Of a stretch of 64,000 nucleotides of DNA, positions 2,661-21,163 are shown piece after piece. Source of the DNA: an uncultured Acidimicrobiales bacterium (lineage in GTDB: Bacteria; Actinomycetota; Acidimicrobiia; Acidimicrobiales; CATQHL01); NCBI GenBank assembly GCA_958295925.1, contig CATQHL010000001.1:2030780-2094779 (forward strand), given 5' to 3'. Each line of letters opens with the position of its first letter. The stretch's first letter is position 1. A model generated the notes under the pieces. It was given only the letters and a program-made list of their open reading frames with translations. It was not told where the DNA came from and did no database searches. Made by a program: the position numbers and the translations under genes.

Positions 2661-2696
2661 ACCTGTGCAGGAACGCTGATCCAGGGAAGGAATGAC

Positions 2697-4188: not shown

Positions 4189-4988
4189 GCGGCGAGGAGT
4201 GGGGCGGGGAGGTTCCGGATGGCTACGTAGCCGGGCTCTTTGACTTCGGCGGGAAGGTCGTGATGGTGACCGGGGGCGCCAGCGGCCTGGGGGAGGCGAT
4301 GGCTCTCGGCTTCGCCGACAGCGGGGCGACGGTGGTAATTGCAGACATCGACCGCGAGCGGGCTGAGCGACTCGTTGCGGGCGTGGGGCCGCGACGTCGC
4401 CTGGGGTTCGTGGAGACCGACGTGACCCGGCGGTCGTCGGTAGAGGCGGCAGTGAGTCGGGTGCTGGGGGAACACGGCGCAGTGGACGTGCTGATCAACA
4501 GCGCCGGGACGGCCGCCCGACACCCTGCTGCGGATTTCCCCGACGAGGACTGGGAGAGGGTGATGGGCCTTAATCTCAAGGGCACCTGGCTTCCCTGTCA
4601 GGTGGTCGGCCGGTCAATGATCGAACGCGGCGGGGGCAGCATCGTCAACGTGGCCTCCATCGGAGCGAGTCGCGCTTACCCCGAAACCACCGCCTATCTG
4701 CAGAGCAAGGGGGCGGTGGTGCAGCTCACGCGCAGCCTGGCGCTGGAGTGGATACCCCACGGCGTGCGGGTGAACGCCATCGCCCCGGCCCTCTTCGATA
4801 CGCCCCTGGTGCGCGCAGCCGACGGAAAACGCAGCTTGACCAGCGAATTCATAATGGCCAGAACTCCAATCGGACGGCGGGGGAAGCCTCGTGAGATGGT
4901 CGCCCCGGCGCTGTTCCTGGCCAGCGATGGCGCCTCCATGGTGACCGGGCAAGTCCTAGGAGTAGACGGGGGGTACCTGACGGCATGA
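4185..4988 (+). CDS. SDR family oxidoreductase
   Basis: VTGGASGLG Rossmann motif, NSAG, catalytic Y-x3-K (YLQSKGAV) and NAIAPA. The TTG start overlaps the upstream stop. Confidence 0.9.
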   Translation: MSGEEWGGEVPDGYVAGLFDFGGKVVMVTGGASGLGEAMALGFADSGATVVIADIDRERAERLVAGVGPRRRLGFVETDVTRRSSVEAAVSRVLGEHGAVDVLINSAGTAARHPAADFPDEDWERVMGLNLKGTWLPCQVVGRSMIERGGGSIVNVASIGASRAYPETTAYLQSKGAVVQLTRSLALEWIPHGVRVNAIAPALFDTPLVRAADGKRSLTSEFIMARTPIGRRGKPREMVAPALFLASDGASMVTGQVLGVDGGYLTA

Positions 4989-6728: not shown

Positions 6729-7974
6729 GGTCGCCGCCGCCGCTGGGGAGGCTGTAGAGGGGCGGGATGGGGCCGCCGGGCGGGAAGGGGCGCTTTCCGA
6801 CCTTCGGGTGGTGGACATGGCCACCGTGGTGGCTGGGCCGGGGGCGGCCAAGCTCTTCGCCGACCTGGGGGCGGAAGTTATAAAGGTGGAGGCGCCCGGA
6901 GGGGATTCGGTGCGGAGGATGGGGTGGATGCCCGAGACGCCGGAGGGCGACGACTCCTACTTCTGGAAGCTGCAGGGGCGCGGCAAGCGCAGCGTCGTGC
7001 TGAACCTCAAGACCGCTGCAGGGCGTGAAGCAATGCTGAAGCTGCTGGACACGGCGGACCTGCTCATTGAGAACCTGCGTCCTGGCAAGTTGGAGGCGCT
7101 CGGGCTTGCGCCGGAGATGTTGAGGGGGCGCAACCCGCGGCTTGTCATCCTGCGAATCACGGGTTTCGGGCAGAGCGGCCCTTACGCCATGCGTCCAGGC
7201 TTCGCAACCCTGGCAGAGGCGTTGAGCGGCTATTCGGCCATCAGCGGTTCGCCCGACGGCCCACCGCTGTTGCCACCCGTCGCCCTTACCGACGAACTCA
7301 CCGGCACCATCGGGGCATTTTCGGCCATGGCCGCCCTCTGGGAGGCGCGCCGCAGCGGCGTGGGCCAGGAAATCGATCTTTCGCTGGTGGATTCCCTGCT
7401 GCATGTCATGGGGCCGCTTCCGTCGGCCTGGGCGCACCTGGGCTATCTGCAGCCGCGTCTGGGCTCGGGCATTCCGTACACGGTGCCGCGCGGCACTTAC
7501 CAGTGCTCCGACGGGCGCTGGATCGCCATCTCCACTTCCAGCGACAGCGTTGCGCGGCGCGTGCTTTCGCTTATCGGGGCGGGCGACGACGAGCGCTTTG
7601 CCAGTTTTTCGGGTCGATTTGCCAATCGGGACGAACTGGAGGGCCTGGTGGCCGACTGGGTGCGCCGACACACTGGCGAGGAGGCCATCAGGCTGCTGGA
7701 TGAGGCCGACGCCGCTGTGTCGCCCGTCTACTCGATGGCCGACCTGTTCGCCGACGAGCACTTCAAGGTTCGAGGGACTTTCGTTGAGGTTGACGGAGTG
7801 GTGATGCAGGGGGTTGCGCCGCGCCTTTCGCGCACGCCCGGGCGGGTGCCCTTTGCGGGCAGGCCACTGGGGGCGGACACTGAGGAGGTTCTGGCAGATC
7901 TGGGTCTTGACGCCGGGTTGTCGGGGCGGGAGCCTGGAGCGGATGCGGCAGATCAGGCTGACGGGGCGGGCTGA
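6721..7974 (+). CDS. family III CoA-transferase (CaiB/BaiF type)
   Basis: LSDLRVVDMATVVAGPGAAKLFADLGAEVIKVE, ENLRPGKLE and ITGFGQSGPY. The start overlaps the MaoC gene by 8 nt. Confidence 0.85.
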   Translation: MTEVAAAAGEAVEGRDGAAGREGALSDLRVVDMATVVAGPGAAKLFADLGAEVIKVEAPGGDSVRRMGWMPETPEGDDSYFWKLQGRGKRSVVLNLKTAAGREAMLKLLDTADLLIENLRPGKLEALGLAPEMLRGRNPRLVILRITGFGQSGPYAMRPGFATLAEALSGYSAISGSPDGPPLLPPVALTDELTGTIGAFSAMAALWEARRSGVGQEIDLSLVDSLLHVMGPLPSAWAHLGYLQPRLGSGIPYTVPRGTYQCSDGRWIAISTSSDSVARRVLSLIGAGDDERFASFSGRFANRDELEGLVADWVRRHTGEEAIRLLDEADAAVSPVYSMADLFADEHFKVRGTFVEVDGVVMQGVAPRLSRTPGRVPFAGRPLGADTEEVLADLGLDAGLSGREPGADAADQADGAG

Positions 7975-8091
7975 CGGATCGGGCGGCAGACCGGATAGGG
8001 CGGGATGGACTGGAGTCGGGACAGGCTGACGGGACGCGACTGATTAGCAGGTCGGACAGGGCATGACCGAATGTGAAAGGCGGTAAGTCAA

Positions 8092-8415
8092 ATGAGCGAA
8101 CAGGGTGATTCAGATATGAAGGCGGGCGAGGAGTACCTGGTTCACATTCAGGTCAACTGGCCGCCGGACGGCGACGAGGCGCTGAAGTCCCGTTTGATAG
8201 CCGCCGAGCGCGCCCGTGCCGTCGAGCTCATAGCCGACGGCGTGCTGCGAAGGCTCTGGCGGGTGCCAGGTCGCTGGGCCAACTGGGGCGTCTGGCGTGC
8301 CGCTGACGCCGACGAACTGCATCAGGCGATTGCATCGTTGCCGTTCTTCCCCTGGCTGGACGTGCGGGTCCATCCGCTGGCGGCGCACCCCTCCGATCCT
8401 GGTCTGGGGGCATAG
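8092..8415 (+). CDS. muconolactone delta-isomerase-family protein
   Basis: LRRLWRVPGRWANWGVW...LHQAIASLPFFPWLDVRVHPLAAHPS parallels Pseudomonas CatC (WRHLWRIAG..ANYSVF..LPLFPYMDIEV..RHPS) as I recall it. Confidence 0.8.
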   Translation: MSEQGDSDMKAGEEYLVHIQVNWPPDGDEALKSRLIAAERARAVELIADGVLRRLWRVPGRWANWGVWRAADADELHQAIASLPFFPWLDVRVHPLAAHPSDPGLGA

Positions 8416-8417
8416 GC

Positions 8418-10115
8418 GTGGCCTTTCCGACTGACTTGGAGATTGCTGCCGATGCCCGGCTGAGGCCGCTCGAAGACGTCGCAGCCGACGCCGGCATCCC
8501 TCCTGGCTGCCTTGAGCCCTACGGGCGAGGAGCGGCCAAGATCGATCTGTCCGCCGTCGAGCTGATGTCGGACAGGCCCAAGGCCGCCTACGTGGTGGTT
8601 ACCGCCATCACGCCTACGCCGCTGGGTGAGGGAAAGACGACCACAACGGTTGGCCTGGGGCAGGCGTTCGCGCACATCGGGCGCACTGCCACCATCGCAA
8701 TTCGCCAGCCCTCGATGGGCCCGACCTTTGGCATAAAGGGCGGCGCCGCCGGCGGGGGCTACAGCCAAGTCGTCCCGATGGACATTCTGAACTTGCACCT
8801 CACTGGGGACATGCACGCCGTGACCGCCGCCCACAACATGTGTGCAGCACAGCTGGACGCCCACATCTTTCACGGCAACGAGTTGGGGCTGAACCTGCAC
8901 TCGATTACGTGGAGGCGGGTGCTGGACGTTAACGACCGCGCCCTCCGCAACGTGGTAATCGGCCTTGGCGGGCGGCTGGACGGCGTGCCCCGCGAGAGCG
9001 GCTTTGACATCACCGCCGCCTCCGAGGTGATGGCCGCTCTTGCGCTGTCCACCTCCCTCGGTGACTTGCGCGCCCGGCTGGGGCGAATCGTCGTGGGGTA
9101 CACGCGCTCCGGCGACCCTGTGACCGCTGAAGACCTGAAGGCCGCCGGCGCCATGGCCGTGATCTTGCGCGACGCCATTAAACCCAACCTCATGCAGACG
9201 CTGGAGGGCACCCCGGCGCTGGTGCACACAGGGCCATTCGGCAACATCGCCACCGGCAACTCCTCAATCGTGGCCGACAGGGTGGGCATCCGCAGCGCAG
9301 AGTTTCTGGTGACAGAGGCAGGCTTCGGCGCCGACATGGGGGCCGAGCGATTCTTCAACATCAAGTGCCGCTACTCGGGGCTGGCGCCTGACGCCGCGGT
9401 GCTGGTTGCCACCGTGCGCGGGCTGAAGGCGCACTCCGGGCGCCACCGCATCGTGGCGGGGCGACCGTTGCCTGAGGCGCTGTTGGAGGAGAACCCCGAC
9501 GAGGTTCACGAGGGCAGCGCCAACCTGCGCAAGCAAATCGAGAACATTCGCATTCACGGCGTCGCGCCGGTTGTAGCGGTGAACGCCTTTCCCGAAGACC
9601 ATGACGCCGACTTGGCCGCCGTCGGGGAGGTCGCCGAGGCTTGCGGCGTGCGCTGGGCAGTCTCACACCACTTCACGGAAGGCGGGAGGGGGGCGGCGGC
9701 GCTGGCCGAAGCGGTGACGGAGGCTGCTTCGGAGCCTGGGGGTTTTGAAGTGCTCTACCCGTCGGAGTATTCGCTTCGTCAAAAGATTGAATGCGTGGCG
9801 AAGCGTGTCTACGGTGCCGAAGGGGTGGATTACAGCGCTCGGGCCTCACGCGAGATCGACACCTACGAAGCTGCGGGCTTCGGCGACCTTCCTGTGTGCA
9901 TCGCCAAGACTCACCTTTCCCTCTCTTCCGACCCTTCCTTGAGGGGTGCGCCGACGGGCTGGCGGTTGCCGGTGCGGGAGGTGCGCGCCTCTGTGGGGGC
10001 GGGGTTCGTCTATCCCATCTGCGGCGACATGCGCACGATGCCCGGCCTTGGCCGGGCACCTGCCGCACAGGGCATCGACCTCGACGCAGAGGGGCGGATC
10101 GTGGGGCTCAGCTAG
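8418..10115 (+). CDS. fhs: formate--tetrahydrofolate ligase
   Basis: Full-length 565 aa with the PTPLGEGKTTTTVGL P-loop, a GPFGNIA-type string and C-terminal CIAKTHLSLS. GTG start lies 2 nt after the upstream stop. Confidence 0.95.
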   Translation: MAFPTDLEIAADARLRPLEDVAADAGIPPGCLEPYGRGAAKIDLSAVELMSDRPKAAYVVVTAITPTPLGEGKTTTTVGLGQAFAHIGRTATIAIRQPSMGPTFGIKGGAAGGGYSQVVPMDILNLHLTGDMHAVTAAHNMCAAQLDAHIFHGNELGLNLHSITWRRVLDVNDRALRNVVIGLGGRLDGVPRESGFDITAASEVMAALALSTSLGDLRARLGRIVVGYTRSGDPVTAEDLKAAGAMAVILRDAIKPNLMQTLEGTPALVHTGPFGNIATGNSSIVADRVGIRSAEFLVTEAGFGADMGAERFFNIKCRYSGLAPDAAVLVATVRGLKAHSGRHRIVAGRPLPEALLEENPDEVHEGSANLRKQIENIRIHGVAPVVAVNAFPEDHDADLAAVGEVAEACGVRWAVSHHFTEGGRGAAALAEAVTEAASEPGGFEVLYPSEYSLRQKIECVAKRVYGAEGVDYSARASREIDTYEAAGFGDLPVCIAKTHLSLSSDPSLRGAPTGWRLPVREVRASVGAGFVYPICGDMRTMPGLGRAPAAQGIDLDAEGRIVGLS

Positions 10116-10135
10116 GGGGAGTCGTCGGCCGCATC

Positions 10136-11362
10136 GTGCACTCTCGCCAGGACGTCTTATCTCAGCAGACACTTGACTGGCTTTCAGCCACTCCGATTGA
10201 GCAGCGAAAGAGGCTGGGCCAGTTCATGACGCCTGAGCCGCTGCGGGAGCGGTTGCTCGATAGGTGTGATCTGCGTCCCGGGATGAGGGTGTTGGATCCG
10301 GGTGTAGGCACCGGGGAGTTTCTGGCGTCGGTCAGGAGGCGAGAGCCGCTGGCTGAGATATACGGCTGGGATGTCGACCCCGAGGTTTTGTCGGTGGCGG
10401 GGGGAATGGTGCCGGAAGCCCGCCTGAGCGAGAGATCGGCTCTCGATCCTTATCACGGGGAGCAGTTTGACCTTGTTGTCGGCAATCCTCCTTATTTTCA
10501 GTTCAAGGCGCCGGGCGCAGTGAGGAGCCACTTCTCGCAGGTGATTTCTGGGCGGGTGAACATTTTCGCGCTGTTTTTCCAGGCAGGGTTCGAAGTGCTG
10601 CGTTCAGGTGGTCAGCTTGCCTACGTGGTGCCGCCGTCTATGAACAACGGCGCATATTTTGAGCGGCTGCGCGGGTTCCTGGCGCGCAACGCCAGCATTG
10701 AGTTCCTCAAGATTTACAGGGACCAGTCGTTGTTCGACGGAGCCCGAACCCCTGTTCAGCTGATTGTCTTGCGGTTAGGGGAGAGAGACAGTGGCCGCCA
10801 CGTGTTTGTACGGGAAAGCCCCTCCAACGGTTTTCGGCGGACGATTTTCTCCGAGCGTCCGTCGGAACTTGAGCGGGCCTTCAGTGGAAGGAGGACGATG
10901 TATGAGCTTGGGTATGAGGCTGTCACCGGCACGATTGTCTGGAACCAGCACAAGGCCGACTTGCGTCACGAGGCAGGCAGCAACTCATACCCGCTTATTT
11001 GGGCGCACAACATAAGGGAAACGCTGAGTTTGGACAGCGCCCGTCTCAGGCCGCAATTCATAGAGACGCAACGGATTCCTCTAGTAGGCCCCGCAATAGT
11101 GACCAACCGCATAGTCGGCTCTGTCGGCTCGGCGGAATTCAGGTGCGCACTGGTTCCCGAAGGGATGAGCTTCCTGGGCGAGAACCACGTAAACGTCATT
11201 AAACCTCGCGGAATAATCAAACCTGAGATCAGCATGCCACAGTTACTCGATATTCTCAAATCACCACTCACCGTAGATCGAATTCGAAGACTAACTGGAA
11301 ACACGCAAATCTCGGCAACTGAGCTGACGCACCTCCTACCGTTGGTTGCGCAGGAGGTGTGA
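10136..11362 (+). CDS. gamma-class N6-adenine DNA methyltransferase (M.TaqI/Eco57I-like), no cognate endonuclease seen
   Basis: The motif order is X-I-IV: GQFMTPEPL, RVLDPGVGTGEFL, FDLVVGNPPYF, then NIFALFF..LRSGGQLAYVVP and a roughly 200-aa TRD-like C-terminal half. The start is uncertain (GTG 10136 or ATG 10226). The ORF-track extension back to 9791 overlaps fhs and is rejected. Confidence 0.85.
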   Translation: MHSRQDVLSQQTLDWLSATPIEQRKRLGQFMTPEPLRERLLDRCDLRPGMRVLDPGVGTGEFLASVRRREPLAEIYGWDVDPEVLSVAGGMVPEARLSERSALDPYHGEQFDLVVGNPPYFQFKAPGAVRSHFSQVISGRVNIFALFFQAGFEVLRSGGQLAYVVPPSMNNGAYFERLRGFLARNASIEFLKIYRDQSLFDGARTPVQLIVLRLGERDSGRHVFVRESPSNGFRRTIFSERPSELERAFSGRRTMYELGYEAVTGTIVWNQHKADLRHEAGSNSYPLIWAHNIRETLSLDSARLRPQFIETQRIPLVGPAIVTNRIVGSVGSAEFRCALVPEGMSFLGENHVNVIKPRGIIKPEISMPQLLDILKSPLTVDRIRRLTGNTQISATELTHLLPLVAQEV

Positions 11363-11379
11363 GCGTACGCTTCCGAGTT

Positions 11380-11988
11380 TCAGCTAGTTGTATCTCGGTC
11401 AGGTTTGATACGGTCTACGAGCCGCCAGACGCTTGAGCTTGGATTAGAGCCTTCCCGATTTTCGTTGCACTTATGCCGTTCGTCAAGGTCCTTGGCTCGC
11501 TCTTTGGCTTTTTCGTAGTTCTTTAGTATCGTAGGAGTGCTGCTTTTGGGGACTCTTTTGCCAGCAACAATCGAAAGTTGTTCAGCACGCTTTTGGATTA
11601 CCTTGCTATTAATATAGCCTGTCCGATCTTCACAATGCAGCACTAGCCACAGTTCAAAACAAGGGTTGGAGATGACGGTCTTGATTCCATTCTTGCGCGC
11701 TAATTCCTTTGCTTTATCAAGATCTGAGTGTTGATTCACATCGAAGACGCACCAAACTTCGTTATAGTCATCATCTCCACTCTGAGATTTACGAGTCTGA
11801 TCCATTGTCGCTTCTTTTACCAAGTTTAGTGGTGAATCGCCGTAGCTCCCTAAGCTAAGTTGCACACTATTATTTTGTCTATTCCAAATCTGAAGATAGT
11901 CTCTCTCAGTTTGTCCGTCGGTGTGTACTCGTATTCTCCTAGCGCGATTCTTTGCTTGCTTGGGTCGCCGCGAACCTTTTGGGGGCAT
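11380..11988 (-). CDS. RloB-like protein (AbiLii-type partner of the ATPase)
   Basis: N-terminal RIRVHTDGQTERDYL corresponds to the CEG..TE..YF-type motif. VWCVFDVNQH and ISNPCFELWLVLHCED are RloB hallmarks. Its ATG shares one base with the ATPase stop (TGATG). Confidence 0.85.
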   Translation of the reverse strand: MPPKGSRRPKQAKNRARRIRVHTDGQTERDYLQIWNRQNNSVQLSLGSYGDSPLNLVKEATMDQTRKSQSGDDDYNEVWCVFDVNQHSDLDKAKELARKNGIKTVISNPCFELWLVLHCEDRTGYINSKVIQKRAEQLSIVAGKRVPKSSTPTILKNYEKAKERAKDLDERHKCNENREGSNPSSSVWRLVDRIKPDRDTTS

Positions 11989-13256
11989 CAGAGATCAGCA
12001 GAGTGTATTTCCAAGTCGAAATTCGCATGATCGAGGTCAGGCACTCCACCATATCTGCCCACGAGATAGTCTTTCCTTATATCCGTATCCTTGGGCAGAC
12101 TGAAGTCAGTTAGTGGATAAATGCTGGAGACGCCCTCGTGAGTCTTTTTGGTAAGCCAGATTTGGTCAGGCCCCAACCCGTGTAGCTCAATGTCCTCAAA
12201 TAGGTTGTAATCATGGGAATTGAAGATTAGTTGAGCACAGTAAGGATTCTTATGTCCGCTCTGGAAGATGTCAACAGTATGCCTTACTAGACTGGGATGC
12301 AAGCTGGCGTCTAGCTCATCGACTAACAAAACCGTGCCGTCCAAGAGAGAATCGTGTATCTTTCCGACAAGTCCAATCCAGACCTTTGTTCCCAGCGACT
12401 CGTCAAATGATTCGAATTCGAATTCGCCCCAGGGGCTTGAGTGCGTGAGTCGGTAAGGTTCTTCGAACGGATCATCAATGCGCTTTGAAGCTTCATCAAC
12501 CTGTTTGATGTCTGCAACTCCGAGATCTGCAGCACGAATAAGGTTAAGAATATATTTTTTTGTGCTTGGATCCTCAATTAGATGGGAAGTGTGGTAGCCT
12601 CGCATACCACGATTAAGAGAATCTGCCAATTGCAGGTTGTTCTCAAACCAGGAATACAATGGTAGAATTATTGTTTCCCTGAGAGCACCTGCAACAGAAA
12701 GTAGTAGTATATTGTTGCGAAGAAGCTTGTGAAAATAGTTGCTAGTAGGGCGTAGAGATGATCCAAAGGAAATTTCTTCTTCGTTGCGTTCAAAAATAGT
12801 GACTCGACGCCCTTTCGGGTAGTAGTAGGCATGTTCACTAAGCACGTCATTATCGTCTATTGTAAAACCGTAACGCCAGTATACACCTGATATAAGCAGA
12901 TTGACTTCGAAACAAGAAGGCTGCTGAGCAGACTCTTTATCTAGCAGGAAAGGACGACGAAACACGACTTCATCTTTGAATGATTTCAATATAACACTGC
13001 GCATGTCTTTCATGGCTCTCAAGAATGTCGTCTTTCCGGAGGCGTTTGCTCCGAAAATGCCTGCGACCGGCAAGACTTCTACGTGCTTGCCGCTTGCCGT
13101 GGGGAGTTCGCGTGCCGCTGATTGCTTGGCGTGTGAGCCAGCATGCATCGAAAAGTGTTCTTTGTCCCTGTAAGAGAGCACATTCTCCGACTTGAACGAC
13201 AAGAGAGCACTCTGTGAAGGATCAACGATCTCACTGTATTTTGCAGTGGTGCGCAT
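11988..13256 (-). CDS. ABC/SMC-like AAA ATPase (AAA_15/AAA_21 type; AbiLi/RloA-like), copy 1
   Basis: Walker A GIFGANASGKTT, DESLGT, Walker B LLVDELDASLHP and H-loop IFNSHD. It is translationally coupled to the RloB-like gene and is very AT-rich relative to the host. Confidence 0.9.
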   Translation of the reverse strand: MRTTAKYSEIVDPSQSALLSFKSENVLSYRDKEHFSMHAGSHAKQSAARELPTASGKHVEVLPVAGIFGANASGKTTFLRAMKDMRSVILKSFKDEVVFRRPFLLDKESAQQPSCFEVNLLISGVYWRYGFTIDDNDVLSEHAYYYPKGRRVTIFERNEEEISFGSSLRPTSNYFHKLLRNNILLLSVAGALRETIILPLYSWFENNLQLADSLNRGMRGYHTSHLIEDPSTKKYILNLIRAADLGVADIKQVDEASKRIDDPFEEPYRLTHSSPWGEFEFESFDESLGTKVWIGLVGKIHDSLLDGTVLLVDELDASLHPSLVRHTVDIFQSGHKNPYCAQLIFNSHDYNLFEDIELHGLGPDQIWLTKKTHEGVSSIYPLTDFSLPKDTDIRKDYLVGRYGGVPDLDHANFDLEIHSADL

Positions 13257-13262
13257 GTGAAA

Positions 13263-13290
13263 ATTCTACGGAGGATTCCACGACTGTCAA
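13263..13290 (-). promoter_or_regulatory. sigma70-like promoter giving a leaderless ATPase-1 transcript
   Basis: On the minus strand: TTGACA (13290-13285), 16 nt, TAGAAT (13268-13263), 6 nt, ATG (13256). No Shine-Dalgarno sequence is present. Confidence 0.4.
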
Positions 13291-13412
13291 TCTGAACGCC
13301 CTAAACGGGTAAGAATGCGACTAGATCGACTTGGCCGACTGGCTGATCGTGGAATTGTGCAAGGTTCGCGATGATCGTCTTGCTGGGCGGGAAACGTGGA
13401 AAGGAGGGTCAC

Positions 13413-15725
13413 ATGGTGACAATGGTCGGAGCGAGCGTCGTCCGTAAAGAGGACGAGAGCCTTCTGACAGGCAGGGGGAGTTACGTGGACTCTGTTCGGC
13501 TGCCGGGCACCCTCGTAATGCACTTTGTGAGAAGTACGGAGGCGCACGCCCGTATTGTCTCCGTCGACACCGAGGCTGCGGCCGCAGCGCCGGGGGTGCA
13601 TGCCGTCTTTGTGGCTGAGGACTTCGGCGAATACGGCAACCTGCCGGGCGCACCTGGAATGGACTGCCCGTTGCTTGCGCGCGGCGTAGTGCGATTTGCG
13701 GGAGAGGGGGTAGCCCTGGTGGTGGCCGATGATCACGCCTCCGCAGCGGACGCGGCAGTGCTGGTTGAAGTGGACTACGAACCGCTGGAGGTGGTGACCA
13801 CGCCGATCGAGGCGATGGCCGAAGGGGCGCCCGTGCTGCACGAGGCGATCGGCTCCAACGTGCTCCTGGACACGCCTTGGCCGGACAACCTGGCCGCTCT
13901 CTTCTCCGAAGCCCCGCGCACGGCTTCGCTGAGGTTCTGGAACAACCGGTTGCATCCCGTGCCGATGGAGACCAGCGTCGTTCTCGCCGACTGGAAGCAC
14001 GACAAGCTCACAGTGTGGGCGTCCACGCAAGTGCCGCACGCACTGCGTAACACGCTTTCGAACTTCCTCGACATTCAGCAAAGCCGCTGTCGCGTCGTCC
14101 AGCCGGATGTGGGGGGAGGATTCGGCGCCAAGGTGCAGTGGTATCCCGAGCTCCTGCTGGCGCCGATCGCCTCCAAGCGGCTGGGGCGCCCCGTGAAATA
14201 CGTTCAGACGCGCACCGAGTGCTTCCAGGCCATGTTCCCCGGGCGCGATCAGCACCACTCCGTCGACGTTGCGTTCGACGACGACGGCAAAATCCTAGGC
14301 ATTCGCAGCGACGTGATCGCCGACTGCGGCGCATATCCCGATGTTCCTGTGGCCCTGGGCATGCCCACGCTTACGAACTGGATGTCGTCGGGCTGCTACG
14401 CCGTCCCGGCGATTTCGGCAGGCCACAAGGTGGTAGCCACCAACAAGACCCCCTATTCCTCATATCGCGGCGCCGGGCGGCCGGAGGCGGCCTACCTGAT
14501 CGAGCGTGTAGTTGATCTTGTTGCCGCCGAGACAGGGCTCGACCCGGTGGATGTGCGCTTCGCCAACTTCATTCCCGCCGACGCCTTCCCCTACGAGGTG
14601 CCGCACTCCAAAGTCTGTTACGACAGTGGAAACTACAAGGAATCGCTGAAGAAACTGCTGAAGATCGCCAACTACGAGGCCCTCAAGGCCGAGCGGGAGC
14701 GCCGCAACTCAAACCCGGACGAGAAATTGATGGGCATCGGCTTTTCCACATGGGTGGAGATTGCCTCATTCGGGCCGCGCGGCTCGATGGAGGCTTTCGG
14801 GCACATTGGCAGCTACGAGTCGTCGCAGGTGCGGATTCAACCCGACGGCACGGCAATTGTGAACACGGGGGCCGCCCCGCACGGACAGGGGACGGTGACA
14901 GTCCTCTCTCAGATTGCCGCAGACGAGCTGCAGATTCCCTTTGACTACATCATCGTGCGTTACGGCGACACCGACTCGACCCCGCAGGGCGTGGGCACCA
15001 TGGGTTCGCGCACGGCCGCGCTGGCAGGGGAGTCCACCAAGCTGGCAGCGCAGAAGGTGATGGGCGTCGCCCGCCGGGTGGCGGCTCACCTGCTCGAGGC
15101 CAACCCCGACGACGTTGTCTGCGAGGAGGGCAGGTTCTCGGTGGTGGGCACGCCAGAGAAGTCCATCGGCTGGCGGGAGGTCGGCTGGGCGGGGCTGTCG
15201 CCCATGCAGCTTCCCGAAGGCCTGGAGACTGGCTGCCTGGAGTCGACGGCCTACTTCGAGCCTTCAGGCTTCACGTTCCCCTTCGGCGCCTACCTGTGCG
15301 TGGTGGGAATCGACAGGGAGACGGGCGACATTGAGATCGAGCGGTTTCTTACGGTGGACGACTGCGGGACGGTGCTGAATCCGATGCTGGCCGACGGACA
15401 GGTGCAGGGAGGAATCGTGCAGGGCATAGCCCAGGCGCTGTATGAGGAGATGCGCTACGACTCGGAGGGTCAGCCGCTCACGGCCAACCTGGTGGACTAT
15501 TTGATGCCCGCCGCTTCCGACGTGCCGTCGATTGCAAGCGACCGCACGGTGACACCCACTCCGCACAACTCCCTTGGCGCCAAGGGCGTCGGCGAGGCCG
15601 GTTCAATCGGGGCGCCGCCGGCGGTGATCAACGCAGTGGTTGACGCCCTGAGCCGGTTCGGGGTTAGCCACATCGACATGCCGGCCACGCCTGAGAGGAT
15701 CTGGCGCGCAATGCGGGGCGCCTAG
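13413..15725 (+). CDS. xanthine dehydrogenase/aldehyde oxidase/CoxL-family molybdopterin-binding large subunit (orphan copy 1)
   Basis: N-terminal VRKEDESLLTGRGSYVD, DVGGGFGAK, active-site loop YRGAGRPEA and C-terminal LGAKGVGEAGSIGAPPAV. ATG 13413 follows AGGAGGG. No adjacent 2Fe-2S or FAD subunit gene is present. Confidence 0.9.
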   Translation: MVTMVGASVVRKEDESLLTGRGSYVDSVRLPGTLVMHFVRSTEAHARIVSVDTEAAAAAPGVHAVFVAEDFGEYGNLPGAPGMDCPLLARGVVRFAGEGVALVVADDHASAADAAVLVEVDYEPLEVVTTPIEAMAEGAPVLHEAIGSNVLLDTPWPDNLAALFSEAPRTASLRFWNNRLHPVPMETSVVLADWKHDKLTVWASTQVPHALRNTLSNFLDIQQSRCRVVQPDVGGGFGAKVQWYPELLLAPIASKRLGRPVKYVQTRTECFQAMFPGRDQHHSVDVAFDDDGKILGIRSDVIADCGAYPDVPVALGMPTLTNWMSSGCYAVPAISAGHKVVATNKTPYSSYRGAGRPEAAYLIERVVDLVAAETGLDPVDVRFANFIPADAFPYEVPHSKVCYDSGNYKESLKKLLKIANYEALKAERERRNSNPDEKLMGIGFSTWVEIASFGPRGSMEAFGHIGSYESSQVRIQPDGTAIVNTGAAPHGQGTVTVLSQIAADELQIPFDYIIVRYGDTDSTPQGVGTMGSRTAALAGESTKLAAQKVMGVARRVAAHLLEANPDDVVCEEGRFSVVGTPEKSIGWREVGWAGLSPMQLPEGLETGCLESTAYFEPSGFTFPFGAYLCVVGIDRETGDIEIERFLTVDDCGTVLNPMLADGQVQGGIVQGIAQALYEEMRYDSEGQPLTANLVDYLMPAASDVPSIASDRTVTPTPHNSLGAKGVGEAGSIGAPPAVINAVVDALSRFGVSHIDMPATPERIWRAMRGA

Positions 15726-15871
15726 TCGTAGTTCGCTCTGTTCTGATTTGGCAAGTACTTAAGGTGTTCTCTTTCAGTTACTTGGCCTTCGGTGTGGATT
15801 CGAATTACTTGGTTAGTATTAATTCCTGTCGGGCGATGTCTAGGTTATTCATACGAGTTTCCATGGTGCTA

Positions 15872-17185
15872 CTAGGTTGTTGCCAGCTCGAAGTCTGCAG
15901 GGTCAAGATTTGGTATTCCTCCGTATCTGCCAAAGAGGTAACGGTGCATGAATGCCTCATCCTTTCGTGTGTTATAGCTGCTGAGAGGATAAATGCTCGT
16001 GATACCGTGCAGATCTTTTTCGGCAAACCAGATTTGATCTCTGCCTAGACGGGGAAATTCGCCCTCTTCAAGCAGAGTGGGATCGTGTGAGTTGAAGATT
16101 AGTTGAGAGCACTTTGGGTTTGTTTTGGGGTCTTGAAATAGACGTATGACTTGCTGGACGAGAAGAGGGTGAAGACTTGAGTCAAGCTCGTCGATCAGTA
16201 TGTGCGTACCGCTGCCTAAAGCAAACAAAATTGGGCCGATTAATCCTATCCACGTTAGTGTTCCCAAGGATTCATCTTCGGCATCGAGCGCGACGGAGCC
16301 CGACGGAGTCGAGTGGGTCAGCTTGAGGATGTCGTTGACAAACATAACCTCATCGTCATTTAATTCTTCATTGCCAGTGAGAATTGCTGCGGCTTTTTTC
16401 ATTCGCTCCATAATTTCGGGACTTGTTGGAACCCGCTCAATGTCAGTAATACCAAGGTCGGCAGATCTCAAGAGTAACAACACGCGCTCGCGCACGTTCA
16501 GATCCCTCGACATGTCGGCGGTAAATACACAGCGCAAATCGCGGTTGTCGGATTCGGCTAGTTGAAAGTTATTTCTAAACCATAAAAAGAGCGAGCTGAG
16601 AGGGTAGTGGGCGGTTGCGCCTGCGACAGAAAGCAGAAGGGAATTGCCTCGAAGAAACGGAAGCAGCAAACGTCCTAAAGAACGGAAGCGGGGGCCGAAT
16701 GTGGTGCGATCCCCGTCGCGCTCAAAGACCAGCGCCTTACGCCCGTTGGGGTAGTGAAAGGCGAACTCATTCAGCACCCGAGTGTCGTCAAACTCGAAGC
16801 CGTACTGCCAGCGGACGCCTTCGACTATGAGGTCGATTTCGAAACTTGAGGGCCGTCGAGCAGATTCGTCGTCTAACAGGAACGGGCGACGGTACATACC
16901 GCTCTCCACGTTGCCCTGTCGGAAAGAACTCAAGACGACCTTGCGCATGTCATCGATCGCCTTGAGGAGGGTTGACTTTCCGGAGGCGTTGGCGCCGAAA
17001 ATGCCCGCTGCAGGCAGTACTCGGACGGGGCTGCCGGCCGTGGGCAGGGCATGAACCGCCGATTTCTCTGAGAGCCTTCCGGCATGCATAGGCAAATACA
17101 CCTCGTCCCGGTAGGAGCGAACGTTCTCTGCGGCGAATGACAAGAGAGCACTTGGGAGAGAAGAAGGAGTTTCTAAGGCGGACAT
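15872..17185 (-). CDS. ABC/SMC-like AAA ATPase, paralog (copy 2) of 11988..13256, no RloB partner
   Basis: It aligns end to end with copy 1 (AGIFGANASGKST, RRPFLLD, LLLSVAGA, DESLGT, ILIDELDSSLHP, QLIFNSHD, GRYGGIPNLD). It ends in a double stop, TAGTAG. Confidence 0.9.
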   Translation of the reverse strand: MSALETPSSLPSALLSFAAENVRSYRDEVYLPMHAGRLSEKSAVHALPTAGSPVRVLPAAGIFGANASGKSTLLKAIDDMRKVVLSSFRQGNVESGMYRRPFLLDDESARRPSSFEIDLIVEGVRWQYGFEFDDTRVLNEFAFHYPNGRKALVFERDGDRTTFGPRFRSLGRLLLPFLRGNSLLLSVAGATAHYPLSSLFLWFRNNFQLAESDNRDLRCVFTADMSRDLNVRERVLLLLRSADLGITDIERVPTSPEIMERMKKAAAILTGNEELNDDEVMFVNDILKLTHSTPSGSVALDAEDESLGTLTWIGLIGPILFALGSGTHILIDELDSSLHPLLVQQVIRLFQDPKTNPKCSQLIFNSHDPTLLEEGEFPRLGRDQIWFAEKDLHGITSIYPLSSYNTRKDEAFMHRYLFGRYGGIPNLDPADFELATT

Positions 17186-17191
17186 AGTTAG

Positions 17192-17220
17192 ATTTTTGCG
17201 GAATTTTCGTAGAAAGTCAA
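17192..17220 (-). promoter_or_regulatory. putative sigma70-like promoter giving a leaderless ATPase-2 transcript
   Basis: On the minus strand: TTGACT (17220-17215), 17 nt, AAAAAT (17197-17192), 6 nt, ATG (17185). The geometry matches the copy-1 promoter, but the -10 element is weaker. Confidence 0.3.
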
Positions 17221-17292
17221 CTTAAAATCGTAGCAAACACTTTTCTGCTGGCACCCTTGCTGCGCGGCGCGGGCGCATCGCGGGGGAGGGGA

Positions 17293-18225
17293 TCAGCTAT
17301 CCGCCAGCCGCTCGGCTTGGCGCAGGTGCTCGGTCAGCTCGGCCAGGGGGCAGCGGGCGTTCAGCCCGCTGGTGGAGGGCATCAAATAGACGGGACGGCC
17401 CCCTACGCGGCGGGGCTGCGCCCCGGGCTCGGCGCGCCGGTCGACGCCAGCCCGCCAGCCCGCCAGGCCCACGAAACAGACGACCGCCGGCTTCAGCCAG
17501 CCTGCCAGGGTGTCGAGCCGCTGCAGCCCGTGCTTGAACTCCGAGGCGGCGATTTCCCCGGCGCGCCTGGAAGGGCGCTTAACCAGGTCTGTCATTCCCA
17601 CGCCGTGTTCGAGCAGTGCGCGGCGCGGGCAGCGATTCGTCGAGACCAGGCCGGCGAGGAGGGCGGCAGGCCAGAAGCGGTTTCCTGCCGTGGCGAAGCC
17701 CACGCCGACTTCGGCGGAGTACAGGCTGGGATTCAAGCCACAGACGAGCAGCCGCATCCCGCTCCCCACGGTGTCGGGCAAGGTGTGCGAGCGTCGGGCA
17801 TTGACGAGCAGGGTGCGCTCCTGCTGCTGGATCGACTCGGGGGCCAGACCGGCCCCTTCGAGGACTGCTCGGAGCAGCGTCAGGGGCCAGTGCGAGAAGC
17901 GCCGCCGGGGGAAGTCGTCGTTGGCGACCTCCCCCCATTCCATGTCCCCGGCGAAGAGATGCATCTCAACCTTGCTCTCGGGTGCCAGCGCTGCGTGCAG
18001 GTCGGCGAGCGCCAGGGGCACCTCTGAGCGGGGAAGATGCACGTACGACCGCGAAGCCCACGCTCCACGCAATGATCCTCGGCGAAACGGAAGGTGGCGC
18101 AAATCCCCTGCCACACGCAGCCCGCCTTCGCATTGGGCAAGCATGGAGCGGCTGGCGTCGAAAGCCACTGCGGGCTGCGGAAGCAGGCGCGTGTGCCAGC
18201 CCGGACCGCATCCCAGGTCGGCCAC
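17293..18225 (-). CDS. fusion protein: class I SAM-dependent methyltransferase + family-2 uracil-DNA glycosylase (Mug/TDG-like)
   Basis: The N-terminal half has DLGCGPGWH (motif I), DLRHLPF and a Methyltransf_11-like layout. The C-terminal half has LLVCGLNPSLYSAEVGVGFATAGNRFW and MPSTSGLN, which are Mug hallmarks. The coordinates use GTG 18225. The true start is probably CTG 18339, which lies 5 nt after AAGGAGG (see findings). Confidence 0.8.
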   Translation of the reverse strand: MADLGCGPGWHTRLLPQPAVAFDASRSMLAQCEGGLRVAGDLRHLPFRRGSLRGAWASRSYVHLPRSEVPLALADLHAALAPESKVEMHLFAGDMEWGEVANDDFPRRRFSHWPLTLLRAVLEGAGLAPESIQQQERTLLVNARRSHTLPDTVGSGMRLLVCGLNPSLYSAEVGVGFATAGNRFWPAALLAGLVSTNRCPRRALLEHGVGMTDLVKRPSRRAGEIAASEFKHGLQRLDTLAGWLKPAVVCFVGLAGWRAGVDRRAEPGAQPRRVGGRPVYLMPSTSGLNARCPLAELTEHLRQAERLADS

Positions 18226-18718
18226 CGGCCCTTCCTCCAGTCTTTGGCCGAATGCCTCGAGGCGTTTCAGGAACCGGGGAGAGCGGCGTCTTACCCATTC
18301 CTCCGCACGTCGGTCATAGACATCGACGGTCTCGTCCAGGGGTTCCTCCTTTCGGTCAAGGTTGATTGGTGAACATTGTTTCAGGGAGTAAGTAGAATTG
18401 CCGTCGTGGTCAACAGCAAATCCAAATCCGTAGAAAAGGTGAAGTCGCAGAGTCAGTCGACGCTTGGAACACAGTCAGTTGGCACCTCTGCGGTTCTGGG
18501 CGAAGCCCTCGCGCTTATCGATTGCAAGCTGGGGGAGGTTTCCATGCGGGAACTGGTGTCACGAACGGAGTTCACCGACTTGCTGTTGGACCTGCGCATC
18601 CTGCTCGCTGCCGAGGCGGAGGCGCTTTCCAGCAACTGAGCTGCGTGCAGCCGAAGTCGGGAGCGGATTCCCGCCCGGTGAGAACGCATCCTTTAAGAGA
18701 AGGCCACGAGGAGACGGA

Positions 18719-21163
18719 GTGACCACCCGCCTAATTGGTGCGAGCGTCCCGCGAAGCGAGGATCGGCGCATCTTGGACGGCGCCGGAGTCTTTATAGACG
18801 ACATCGAGCCCGCCGGCTGTCTGCACGTTGCGATGGTGCGATCCACTTGCGCCAACGGGCGCATCAGAAGGGTGGATGCCACGCCAGCGCGGGCCGCTCC
18901 GGGCGTGGTAGCCGTTTACACAGCGGACGACCTGGGGGAACTAGGTCGGAGGAACCTTCCCCTGCTGATTCCCAACCCAGCCCTCACCGAACCTCGAACG
19001 CAGTTTCTGCTCGCCTTCGAGTACGTGCATTTTGTGGGCGAGGCAGTGGCGATGGTGGTGGCGGAGAGCCGTTACGCAGCCGAAGACGCTGCAGGGCTGG
19101 TGGAGGTTGACTACACGGAGTTCCCGGCGGTCGTCGGGCCGTTGAACGCCTTTCATTCCAAAGAGCGCGCGCACGTGGACATGAACACCAACGTGGCGGC
19201 CCACTTTGTGCAGGAGCACGGCGACACGGAGGCGGCGTTTGAAGGGGCCACGCGTGTTCTCGAGCGTGAATTTATGGTGGAGCGCAGCGCCGCTACGCCC
19301 ATCGAGTGCCGAGGGGTGGTGGCGATACCCGAGCAGACCGGCCAACTCCTGGTCTACGACTCGTCGCAGGCGCCAAGCACTATCAGGGCGGGGCTATCCA
19401 CCTACCTCGGGGTAGCCGAGCATGAAGTGGAGGTGGTGGCTCCCGACGTGGGCGGGGGATTCGGCGTCAAGCTGCCGGTTTTCTATCCTGAGGAAATACT
19501 CGTTCCGTGGGCTGCGAGGCGCCTGGGCGCCCCTGTGAAGTTCGTAGAGGACCGCTCTGAGCACTTCGTTGCCTCCAACCACGAGCGGGCGCAGTGGCAC
19601 AGGGTGAAGGTCGGATACGAGGAGGATGGGCGCATCTGCGGACTGGTCGACGAGTTCATCCACGATGCGGGCGCCTACTGCCCGTACGGGATCATCATCC
19701 CCATCGTCACGGCCAGCAGGCTGCCGGGGCCATACAAGATCCCCGCGTACGGCAGCGAGATGCATGTCGTCTACACAAACACCGTGCCCGTCACGCCGTA
19801 CAGAGGCGCAGGGATGCCGCAAGGTGCTTTCGTGATGGAGAGGGTGATTGACCTGATTGCGCGCGACCTGGGCGTCGACAGGGCAGAGGTGCGACGAAGA
19901 AACTTCATCGCCCCAGACGAGTTTCCCTACGTGGTCGGACTCATGGACGAGGACGGCACCACCACCACCTACGACAGTGGCGACTACCCCAGGGGGTTCG
20001 AGAAACTCCTCGAGTCGATCGGCCATGCGGGCTTTCCCGCTGAACAGGCCGCGGCTCTAGCGGAGGGAAGGCGCATCGGAATCGGCTTCGGCTGTTACGT
20101 GGAAGGGACGGGCTGCGGCCCCTACGAAGGGGCCCGCATCCACGTGGAGACAACCGGGAAGGTCTTTGTGAGCACCGGCATAGCCACCCAGGGCCAGTCG
20201 CACTGCACCATCCTCTCGCAGATCGTTGCCGACGTTCTTGGCGTGGCGCTCGACGACGTGGTGGTGAAGACGGGGGACACGCGGCAATTCAAGTGGGCCA
20301 CTGGGACTTTCGCCTCCCGCATAGCGGTTGTGGCGGGCAGCGCCGTGGCAGAGGCGGCATTGCTCGTAAAGGAAAAAGCAGCCGAGATAGCGGCGAGAAT
20401 TTTCGAAGCCAGCACGGCCGACGTCGCCTTCGAAGACGGCGACGTCTTCGTGAAGGGTTCGCCTGACGTCCGGATCCCGCTTCGGCAGGTCGCGGTGCTC
20501 GCCAACCCTCTCCGCTACGCATTCAGCAGTGAAGCCCTCGCCGCCACACAGTTCGTCGGCGACGGCGAGCGCGCCAAGGCCCCTCCGCCTTCGGAGGTTG
20601 CGCCCGGCCTGGAGGCGACGGCGTACGCCAGCCCTGAGTTCGCCACATTTGCCAGCGGTGCGCATGCCGCAGTGGTGGAGGTGGACGTGGAGACTGGCGC
20701 GGTGCGCATTCTGCGCTACTCGGTGGTGCACGACTGCGGGAGGATGATCAACCCCGCTGTTGTCGAGGGGCAGGTGCACGGCGGCACGGCCCAGGGGATC
20801 GGCGGGGCGCTGTACGAGCGGATTTGCTACGACGAGGAGGGGCAGCTGAAGAACGCCAACTTCATGGACTTTCTCGTCCCGTATGCCTCGGAGATTCCTG
20901 AGATTTGCGTGGAGCACACCGAGACGCCCTCGCCCTTGAATCCCCTCGGAGTCAAGGGCGTGGGGGAGGCGGGCTGCATCTCAGCTGCGCCGGCTGTAAT
21001 AGGCGCGATTGAGGATGCCCTGGGCGTCGAGATCACGTCTTCGCCTCTCAGCCCTGAGATGGTCGCGGGGTTGGCTGCGGGCAGCGCAGGCGGTGAGGCG
21101 GCGGGCTCATTCGCGGCGAGAGGGGGCGTTGGGCAGTCTCGAGGTGAAACAGATGGTGCTTGA
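18719..21163 (+). CDS. xanthine dehydrogenase/CoxL-family molybdopterin-binding large subunit (copy 2)
   Basis: VPRSEDRRILDGAGVFIDD, DVGGGFGVK, YRGAGMPQGAF and LGVKGVGEAGCISAAPAV. GTG 18719 follows GAGGAG. The ORF-track extension to 18464 is rejected. Confidence 0.9.
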   Translation: MTTRLIGASVPRSEDRRILDGAGVFIDDIEPAGCLHVAMVRSTCANGRIRRVDATPARAAPGVVAVYTADDLGELGRRNLPLLIPNPALTEPRTQFLLAFEYVHFVGEAVAMVVAESRYAAEDAAGLVEVDYTEFPAVVGPLNAFHSKERAHVDMNTNVAAHFVQEHGDTEAAFEGATRVLEREFMVERSAATPIECRGVVAIPEQTGQLLVYDSSQAPSTIRAGLSTYLGVAEHEVEVVAPDVGGGFGVKLPVFYPEEILVPWAARRLGAPVKFVEDRSEHFVASNHERAQWHRVKVGYEEDGRICGLVDEFIHDAGAYCPYGIIIPIVTASRLPGPYKIPAYGSEMHVVYTNTVPVTPYRGAGMPQGAFVMERVIDLIARDLGVDRAEVRRRNFIAPDEFPYVVGLMDEDGTTTTYDSGDYPRGFEKLLESIGHAGFPAEQAAALAEGRRIGIGFGCYVEGTGCGPYEGARIHVETTGKVFVSTGIATQGQSHCTILSQIVADVLGVALDDVVVKTGDTRQFKWATGTFASRIAVVAGSAVAEAALLVKEKAAEIAARIFEASTADVAFEDGDVFVKGSPDVRIPLRQVAVLANPLRYAFSSEALAATQFVGDGERAKAPPPSEVAPGLEATAYASPEFATFASGAHAAVVEVDVETGAVRILRYSVVHDCGRMINPAVVEGQVHGGTAQGIGGALYERICYDEEGQLKNANFMDFLVPYASEIPEICVEHTETPSPLNPLGVKGVGEAGCISAAPAVIGAIEDALGVEITSSPLSPEMVAGLAAGSAGGEAAGSFAARGGVGQSRGETDGA

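Follow-up and report, generated by a model that had tools for sequence, protein, structure and literature searches.

A second AbiL-type module, probably in decay, that retains an intact ATPase gene next to a broken rloB partner

The closest described counterparts of the locus analysed here are systems that combine an ABC ATPase with a Toprim-type nuclease. AbiL of Lactococcus lactis consists of AbiLi and AbiLii, and in its original description the abortive-infection phenotype reportedly needs both genes. Homologues of the ATPase analysed here normally precede a gene coding for an RloB/AbiLii protein (PF13707), which overlaps the gene of the ATPase or lies close after it. AbiL has been placed among the systems of ABC ATPases and TOPRIM proteins on the tree of PARIS ATPases (PMC11464382) and its component AbiLii was described as a toxic effector (PMC10440598). 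PARIS, which is OLD-like and belongs to class 4, contains the ABC ATPase AriA and the DUF4435 Toprim nuclease AriB, the latter of which is sequestered by the former (PMC11464382), and TOPRIM_OLD toxins were found to be neutralised by AAA ATPases in toxicity assays (PMC10440598). The window, by which we refer to the whole 64-kb stretch of DNA analysed in this study, contains one module (module 1) that is exactly alike in its layout, with the reported overlap between the first ATPase copy and rloB amounting to a single nucleotide (TGATG). It also contains a second copy, which the original prediction had described as a paralog that has no RloB partner. As shown below, a partner is present as a broken stub. 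The features relevant for this description are the following, with positions referring to the window:

11380..13256, minus strand: intact AbiL-type module 1 (Pfam AAA_21 and RloB; PADLOC AbiLi and AbiLii)
11380..11988, minus strand: rloB-1 (Pfam RloB, E 5e-33)
11988..13256, minus strand: abiLi-1 (copy 1)
13371..15725, plus strand: native Mo-hydroxylase large-subunit gene (Pfam MoCoBD_1/2, Ald_Xan_dh_C)
15726..17245, no strand assigned: inserted low-GC segment with promoter-like element, abiLi-2 and rloB-2 stub (by synteny and composition)
15726..15852, minus strand: rloB-2 pseudogene stub (by tblastn, RloB profile, BLASTP and the frame layout read from the sequence)
15872..17185, minus strand: abiLi-2 (copy 2), coding for an intact 437-residue ABC ATPase of the AbiLi type (AAA_21, predicted Rad50-like)
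17192..17220, minus strand: predicted promoter-like element TTGACT-17-AAAAAT (consensus scan only)
17293..18339, minus strand: native gene of a SAM-methyltransferase/UDG(Mug)-family fusion, MTase-Mug (Pfam UDG, Methyltransf_25/11)

The properties of abiLi-2 are those of a complete gene. Its open reading frame runs without interruption and the encoded protein matches the Pfam family AAA_21 with an E-value of 3.9e-36 and the AbiLi model of PADLOC with 1.3e-83, compared to 5e-34 and 2e-79 in case of copy 1, while its match to AAA_15 falls below the Pfam cut-off. Every residue that is invariant in the ATPase family is kept, including G64 to K70 of Walker A, D332 of Walker B, the signature E305-S306-x-G308-T309, H339 and the pair H367-D368, with the H-loop motif included, which upholds the initial view that the ATPase motifs are intact and that the gene does not look like a pseudogene. 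At positions that are at least 90% conserved, copy 2 is off the consensus in 7 of 105 columns and the partnered copy 1 in 10 of 106. An AlphaFold2 model of copy 2, which is of moderate confidence (pLDDT 70.9, pTM 0.71), was matched by Foldseek to Rad50 and PtuA with E-values of about 1e-8 and a probability of 1.0, at low TM-scores of 0.3-0.4, and a search of the PDB with the sequence yielded no match better than E 0.003. Together with the Pfam matches, this model predicts that the protein folds like the Rad50-related ABC ATPases of the AAA15/21 group.

The partner of this ATPase is found in the 146-bp spacer after the TAGTAG at the end of abiLi-2, which had been taken for non-coding DNA. The suggested tblastn search of this region with RloB-1 as query detected 13 identities over 29 positions. 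A profile of the RloB proteins that accompany homologous ATPases, scanned against 1493 six-frame segments of the window, recognises the same remnant with an E-value of 1.5e-4 (17.8 bits, profile positions 27-63 of 222), as the sole match besides RloB-1 and with the next best segment reaching 4.7 bits. By BLASTP it shares 14 of 27 residues (E 2e-8) with the RloB protein of locus L003, which is the partner of an ATPase that is 54% identical to copy 2. With few codons left and a modest profile score, the stub is identified partly through its position. It comprises about 43 codons from the 5' end of the gene, including the EGxxTE motif, and likely starts with the ATG at 15852..15850. As read from the sequence, a probable 1-nt frameshift is located in a short A run near 15845, at codon 3, after which about 40 codons, PRHRPTGINTNQVIRIHTEGQVTEREHLKYLPNQNRANYD, spanning the EGxxTE motif, continue in the frame of the ATPase at 15725..15844 on the minus strand, and the stub is left with no usable in-frame start. 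At its other end, rloB-2 is cut at the junction to the host DNA, precisely where the convergent gene of the Mo-hydroxylase has its stop codon. Roughly 160 codons are absent, among them the DxD and NPCFELW motifs, and what lies directly downstream of copy 2 on the same strand is this stub rather than a complete AbiLii/RloB (PF13707) gene. The frameshift could reflect a homopolymer error if the genome was obtained from long reads, and its relatives are long-read-style chromosomes assembled from metagenomes.

The origin of the segment is illustrated by L004 and L005, two related Acidimicrobiales genomes (metagenome-assembled chromosomes). In both, orthologues of the Mo-hydroxylase (88% identical in L004 and 84% in L005) and of MTase-Mug (77-79%) adjoin each other in direct convergence, with stop codons that are 56 bp apart in L004 and 18 bp in L005, nothing between them and no ATPase, and the patch from 15726 to about 17245 is for this reason a lineage-specific insertion. 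Its left junction abuts the TAG stop codon of the Mo-hydroxylase gene (15723..15725), the C-terminus of which is intact and of equal length in L005. The right junction is approximate, as it was set by the shift in GC content, and beyond it GC-rich intergenic sequence continues for about 45 nt up to the stop codon of MTase-Mug. The patches of the two copies are the only stretches of the window with less than 53% GC (300-bp windows, 64 kb). Copy 2 had been recognised as the less AT-rich of the two, which is reflected in a GC content of 0.527 vs 0.461 and a GC3 of 0.58 vs 0.47, with host genes at about 0.81 and MTase-Mug at 0.82. The gene of MTase-Mug, which probably starts with CTG at 18339, 6 nt past AAGGAGG, and whose N-terminal region is conserved in frame, is a native bystander outside the module, so that its adjacency to the ATPase arose through the insertion. 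We found no tRNA genes in the 64-kb window and saw no integrase among the Pfam-scanned open reading frames flanking the patch and no flanking direct repeats when inspecting the junction sequences by eye. The cassette appears to carry its own promoter. Since only 6 nt separate the -10 hexamer of the promoter-like element from the ATG start codon of abiLi-2, its predicted position suggests a leaderless mRNA, and a matching geometry is found 5' of copy 1 (TTGACA-16-TAGAAT-6-ATG) and also 5' of the cassette in L005.

The latter is a counterpart of module 1 at the same site, with 66% identity in the ATPase and 49% in RloB, and it bears on the relationship between the two copies. Aligned end to end by BLASTP, these share 201 of 424 residues (47% identity, 64% positives, E 2e-133), in agreement with the earlier estimate of about one half. 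The term paralog is appropriate in as far as it denotes homology, but not for a recent duplication in this genome, which the two copies do not represent because copy 1 is closer to the ATPase of L005, with which it paired in 200/200 bootstraps compared to 0/200 for the two copies, because third codon positions are identical in only 37.5% of cases and because the 16-nt run shared by both copies is not significant. The copies are homologues from separately acquired cassettes. The identical run itself is present as described but not meaningful, since it is at chance level for genes of such similarity (codon-column permutation, P = 0.09), and gene conversion as its source was rejected on the same grounds. 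Copy 2 also joined the pair formed by copy 1 and the ATPase of L005 in 177/200 bootstraps of the raw NJ tree, which was rejected as evidence of a common origin since recoding with Dayhoff-6 lowers this support to 9/200 and all three proteins are rich in residues with AT-rich codons. In the database, the homologues nearest to copy 2 reach 54-55% identity, compared to 47% for copy 1, and no relatives above 55% identity were found. Searches of plasmids and phages detected distant relatives only (at most 47% identity), whose occurrence confirms that the ATPase family is mobile, and none of which identifies a donor of the cassette.

Collectively, these properties lead us to assign a probability of about 80% to the locus being a second, separately acquired AbiL-type module in decay, in which the ATPase is intact and the nuclease gene broken. 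A decayed second system had been the first of three alternatives that the original prediction listed with no preference, with the reasoning that RloB genes always present next to the homologues of copy 2 would point to simple decay. Such genes are indeed common, as a full RloB gene is located directly downstream in 48 of 61 evaluable homologue loci, with short or weak RloB fragments in 7 and none in the remaining 6, and stubs similar to rloB-2 are found at L105 (92 residues) and L090 (69 residues). It is this usual pairing, together with the truncated and probably frameshifted stub exactly at the site of the partner, that argues for decay. In the process we envisage, copy 2 would be the ABC ATPase that acts as sensor and neutraliser in a two-gene module of AbiLi and RloB/AbiLii, the latter of which is a Toprim-like nuclease. 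In this lineage only, a low-GC cassette of about 1.5 kb with its own promoter would have entered the narrow gap that separates the convergent genes of the Mo-hydroxylase and MTase-Mug, and rloB-2 would have been destroyed after the insertion, leaving its first 43 or so codons with a probable frameshift at codon 3, or else the cassette may already have been truncated on arrival. Devoid of its effector, module 2 would be unable to work as an AbiL system and the intact orphan ATPase would presumably play no present role in defence. The direction of decay would fit a logic resembling that of toxin-antitoxin pairs, by analogy to related pairs of ATPases and Toprim proteins, where the ATPase restrains a toxic nuclease and where loss of the nuclease would therefore be harmless, unlike the loss of the ATPase alone.

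A different outcome, in which the orphan ATPase has been selected, either because it shares RloB-1 in an arrangement of two sensors and one effector or because it blunts incoming RloB-type nucleases, appears unlikely to us. It would turn the loss of the nuclease from decay into adaptive rewiring. Weakly hinting at persisting selection is the integrity of the ATPase next to a 127-nt stub with one frameshift, as the chance that a single such event across ATPase and stub falls into the latter is about 9%. It is also clear that orphan ATPases of this family can be maintained, since a clade lacking RloB (L099, L100 and L101), whose members reside in unrelated genomic contexts, shows dN/dS values of 0.17-0.26. 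In its specific form as shared effector, the second alternative of the original prediction, where ATPase-2 would join or regulate RloB-1 as second sensor or as heteromer with ATPase-1, we consider this scenario unsupported and improbable, even though it would account for an intact gene with intact motifs and its own promoter-like element, both ATPases belong to one subfamily and the stub resembles the N-terminus of RloB-1. This is because the distances of ATPases and RloB proteins co-vary tightly over 48 modules (mirror-tree r = 0.85, Mantel 0/2000) and partners of ATPases that are 42-52% identical to one another are only about 35% identical, which indicates that both components are inherited as a pair and that they are probably cognate. 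Moreover, the genes of ATPase-2 and RloB-1 belong to separate transcription units, at a distance of about 3.9 kb and with a convergent host gene between them.

Still somewhat less credible is a stand-alone role of the ATPase, as orphan antitoxin or anti-addiction factor against incoming RloB-type nucleases or in combination with an effector encoded at an unlinked site of the genome, of which our partner search covers 64 kb. RloB-less homologues as such are not rare, AAA ATPases do act as antitoxins of Toprim toxins (PMC10440598) and the family can switch partners, as suggested by locus L093, where an HNH open reading frame takes the downstream position of RloB, and by L099 with its UvrD-like helicase upstream, although the genes elsewhere are unrelated and, with contexts differing, no common alternative partner was found among the orphan homologue loci. 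However, there is no candidate partner beside copy 2, whose neighbours are native metabolic and repair genes, and recent decay is the simplest explanation for the presence of a degraded cognate partner. A complete module 2, for which truncation or frameshift or both would be errors of assembly or sequencing, is highly improbable, since, irrespective of metagenome-assembled relatives and the location of the putative frameshift in an A run, the 2.55-Mb contig, which is otherwise contiguous, would have to lack about 480 bp of rloB, with a clean junction at an intact host stop codon in a context as found in L005. Finally, the proposal that ATPase-2 acts with the MTase-Mug fusion, encoded on the same strand at a distance of 107 bp with no terminator-like site found between them, is effectively refuted by orthologues that occupy the same position next to the Mo-hydroxylase without ATPase in two genomes, which implies that the gene predates the insertion, by its host-like GC3 and the lack of a PADLOC match, and by a cassette that includes both a promoter-like element and an effector of its own, the latter now broken.

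The preferred reading of a decaying module describes an ordinary case of decay in a defence system, and the main value of our study lies in a correction, since the supposedly partnerless paralog has a partner, though a broken one. The appropriate annotation of the locus is consequently that of an AbiL-type module in degraded form, composed of an intact AbiLi-like ATPase and an rloB pseudogene. It offers a clean and dated example for the decay of an ATPase-nuclease pair in which loss begins with the nuclease and spares the ATPase and, considered along with the 13 of 61 homologue loci where RloB is fragmentary or absent, it suggests that orphan ATPases are a recurrent state. This is relevant for tools that predict defence systems by counting single genes and for the question whether orphan sensor ATPases gain new roles.

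The described features position copy 2 relative to known systems. It resembles AbiL of Lactococcus lactis and RloB-associated ATPases in its matches to AbiLi and AAA_21, but it differs from the former in the incompleteness of its system, in its low identity to AbiL-type proteins of lactococcal prophages (27% to Lactococcus phage proPhi7) and in its host, an Acidimicrobiales-like actinobacterium. With PARIS it shares the logic of an AAA15/21 ATPase combined with a Toprim-type nuclease and weak matches to the AriA model of PADLOC, whereas the partner domain in its module is RloB rather than DUF4435, for which Pfam detected no match in neighbouring open reading frames, and a PARIS-like mechanism, where an ATPase scaffold would free the nuclease upon sensing of a phage protein, can be invoked only by way of analogy. 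Rad50 and the PtuA proteins associated with Septu and retrons provide the best structural matches to the model, with a Rad50-like ABC head and helical insertions in common, although matches to PtuA models are weak (E 1e-6 or worse) and no HNH nuclease of the PtuB type is encoded beside copy 2, between its Mo-hydroxylase and MTase-Mug neighbours. In its present state, the locus may thus be best compared, by analogy, to the orphan antitoxins of decayed toxin-antitoxin loci, where the neutraliser is likewise kept and the toxic effector is lost.

The 146 bp between the TAGTAG that ends the second ATPase gene (copy 2, abiLi-2; 15872..17185, minus strand) and the stop codon of the convergent Mo-hydroxylase large-subunit gene (13371..15725, plus strand) were regarded as non-coding in the original prediction, but they hold the remnant of an rloB gene instead of a plain spacer. 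On the minus strand, 15844..15725 translates in the frame of the ATPase into PRHRPTGINTNQVIRIHTEGQVTEREHLKYLPNQNRANYD. When the 1493 segments of a six-frame translation of the window were all searched, with filters off, using a RloB profile derived from genes downstream of homologous ATPases in other genomes, only two scored, namely the rloB gene next to the first ATPase (rloB-1, E 4e-68) and this stub (rloB-2, E 1.5e-4, 17.8 bits), with the best segment after them reaching 4.7 bits. The stub covers positions 27-63 of the 222 in the profile, including the conserved EGxxTExxY motif, and shares 14 of 27 residues (E 2e-8) with the RloB of a homologous locus (L003) whose ATPase is 54% identical to copy 2. 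An ATG at 15852, upstream of the stub, opens 'MNN' in the +1 frame, and restoring one base near 15845 would yield MN(K)PRHRPTG..., which resembles the start of the L003 protein (MNRPRPKAG); the first lesion is probably a frameshift at codon 3. The second cuts the gene short beyond about codon 43, so that the DxD and NPCFELW motifs are gone. What is left of rloB-2 runs exactly up to the Mo-hydroxylase stop codon (TAG, 15723..15725); the C-terminus of the Mo-hydroxylase is intact and equal in length to that of a relative. An error could account for the single-base frameshift should the assembly be a long-read MAG, and is much less likely to account for the 480-bp truncation. We assign a probability of about 0.8 to copy 2 being the ATPase of a decayed AbiL-type module, whereas it is less certain that the ATPase is now inert.

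The ATPase gene itself is an open reading frame of 437 codons without interruption. As anticipated, its product aligns end-to-end with that of copy 1 (abiLi-1; 11988..13256, minus strand) with about half of the residues identical (BLASTP, 201/424 or 47%, 64% positives, E 2e-133). Both contain a Pfam AAA_21 domain and are hits of the PADLOC AbiLi model (E 1e-83 for copy 2, 2e-79 for copy 1), and the proposed overlap of copy 1 with rloB amounts to one base, the overlapping gene matching Pfam RloB and PADLOC AbiLii. An alignment with 26 database homologues bears out the predicted integrity of the ATPase motifs: residues that are invariant in the family, among them those at the Walker A, signature-like, Walker B and H-loop positions, are all present in the two copies. 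At columns with at least 90% conservation, copy 2 is off consensus at 7 of 105 and the partnered copy 1 at 10 of 106 (family median 3), and no decay is visible in the sequence of the copy 2 ATPase gene. An AlphaFold2 model of copy 2 (pLDDT 70.9, of poor quality over the last 65 residues) retrieved Rad50 and PtuA-type defence ATPases in Foldseek (E about 1e-8, TM 0.3-0.4).

Protein look-ups (three loci) and a metagenome scan (80 loci) provided 83 loci with homologous ATPases, of which the 61 with enough downstream DNA were judged. The original prediction had listed a decayed system as its first alternative, to be recognized by homologues that carry RloB; a full RloB gene is found directly downstream of the ATPase at 48 of the 61 loci, pointing to simple decay. 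Seven others contain only short or weak RloB fragments, including stubs like that of copy 2 in L105 (92 aa) and L090 (69 aa), and six have no RloB. Across the 48 modules, ATPase and RloB divergence are tightly correlated (r = 0.85, Mantel 0/2000) and the pair is therefore inherited together. Two of the RloB-less loci carry other candidate partners, L093 an HNH and zinc-ribbon ORF after the ATPase, where RloB would be expected (3835..4626, plus strand), and L099 a UvrD-like helicase upstream of it (795..2888, plus strand), contexts that suggest effector swapping within the ATPase subfamily.

An alternative to module decay with an inert ATPase is a retained role of copy 2, either with RloB-1, as in the originally proposed sharing of a single RloB, or as an orphan neutraliser, which we consider together to be unlikely. 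One hint of it is that the stub has one frameshift and the ten-times-longer ATPase gene none, where a single event would fall into the stub by chance in only about 9% of cases. Another comes from a clade of RloB-less ATPases (L099, L100 and L101), which are 86-90% identical to one another in unrelated genomic contexts and show dN/dS values of 0.17-0.26 compared to 0.07-0.14 in partnered pairs; purifying selection can therefore maintain orphan ATPases in this family.

Scanning species-representative genomes with the Mo-hydroxylase protein identified two related Acidimicrobiales MAG chromosomes, L004 (OZ241998, 88% identity) and L005 (OZ251507, 84%). Both chromosomes place the Mo-hydroxylase orthologue directly next to, and convergent with, an orthologue (77-79% identity) of the SAM-methyltransferase/UDG fusion gene MTase-Mug (17293..18339, minus strand), with 56 bp (L004) and 18 bp (L005) between the stop codons and no ATPase in between. 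For this reason, the segment 15726..~17245 is, as judged from gene order, a lineage-specific insertion and MTase-Mug a native neighbour of copy 2. The suggestion that MTase-Mug serves as effector of copy 2 is effectively refuted by its native origin and by orthologues in L004 and L005 that adjoin no ATPase. The MTase-Mug frame runs 38 codons upstream of its first canonical start (18226..18351, minus strand), and this extension matches the N-termini of 348-aa orthologues; the gene likely starts at the non-canonical CTG at 18339..18337, 6 nt after AAGGAGG. Beyond it, the window contains a second Mo-hydroxylase large-subunit gene (18464..21163, plus strand) and L004 and L005 an ORF on the other strand, possibly a flavin-dependent reductase by its N-terminal GGGPAG dinucleotide-binding-type motif; synteny therefore breaks on that side too.

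A recent in-genome duplication is ruled out by closer outside homologues of copy 2 (54-55% identical, compared to only 47% for copy 1), by the pairing of both copies in none of 200 neighbour-joining bootstraps, where copy 1 paired with the L005 ATPase in all 200, and by a nucleotide identity of 56% that drops to 37.5% at third codon positions. The copy 1/L005 pair was joined by copy 2 in 177/200 replicates of the raw tree and in 9/200 under Dayhoff-6 recoding, and this grouping was rejected as kinship; it is likely compositional because residues encoded by AT-rich codons are abundant in all three proteins. The two ATPase genes are, by these comparisons, old homologues, each of which came in with a cassette of its own. 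Their patches are the only stretches below 53% GC in the 64-kb window, and copy 2 is, as had been noted, less AT-rich than copy 1 (GC3 0.58 and 0.47, host genes about 0.81). The reported 16-nt identical run exists but does not exceed chance for genes so alike (codon-column permutation P = 0.09).

At the position of module 1 (abiLi-1 and rloB-1), in the gap that separates the genes for formate-tetrahydrofolate ligase and Mo-hydroxylase, L005 has an AbiLi/RloB cassette (GC 44%) whose ATPase and RloB are 66% and 49% identical to those of module 1, and L004 has none. This gap (~10120..13370 in the window, 7855..9962 in L005) looks like an insertion hotspot, the genes on its flanks being 84-91% identical. 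In the window it also holds an Eco57I-like N6-adenine methyltransferase gene (~10199..11362, plus strand, GC3 0.675), for which no restriction partner is visible. Upstream of copy 2, a promoter-like TTGACT-17-AAAAAT matching the consensus ends 6 nt before the ATG, and -10-like elements share this geometry in copy 1 (TAGAAT) and L005 (TAAAAT). The promoter-like regions are:

13257..13300, minus strand, window, upstream of copy 1
17186..17220, minus strand, window, upstream of copy 2
upstream of 9807, minus strand, L005

All three cassettes contain a similar GAAA(T)TCC-like spacer. The consensus matches suggest leaderless transcripts of the ATPase genes, and the promoters are possibly homologous. 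Among 59 aligned RloB partners, only two have DxN in place of the Toprim DxD (FDVNQH and FDRNTH), the others showing D in 51 and E in 6 cases at that position:

11380..11988, minus strand, window, rloB-1
7931..8536, minus strand, L005, its counterpart

In RloB-1, D also replaces the first E of EGxxTE, with a gap of one residue. Catalytically, the 'intact' nuclease encoded by module 1 may be unusual, and module 1 is by analogy a plausible working ATPase-nuclease defence pair.

Pairs of AAA15/21 ABC ATPases and Toprim-type nucleases form related systems, among which AbiL has been placed, and the PARIS nuclease stays sequestered on its ATPase scaffold until triggered (PMC11464382). Toxicity assays have shown AAA ATPases to neutralise TOPRIM_OLD toxins, and AbiLii was described as the toxic effector (PMC10440598). 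By analogy, module 2 would have lost its toxic half, a loss that a cell could tolerate, and its remainder would be a sensor or neutraliser with nothing of its own left to control. The annotation can be corrected to an insertion between native genes that comprises an AbiLi-like ATPase gene and an rloB pseudogene, and such nuclease-first decay recurs in the AbiLi-like ATPase family. The copy 2 locus is of little novelty, as a degraded member of an already known type of system.
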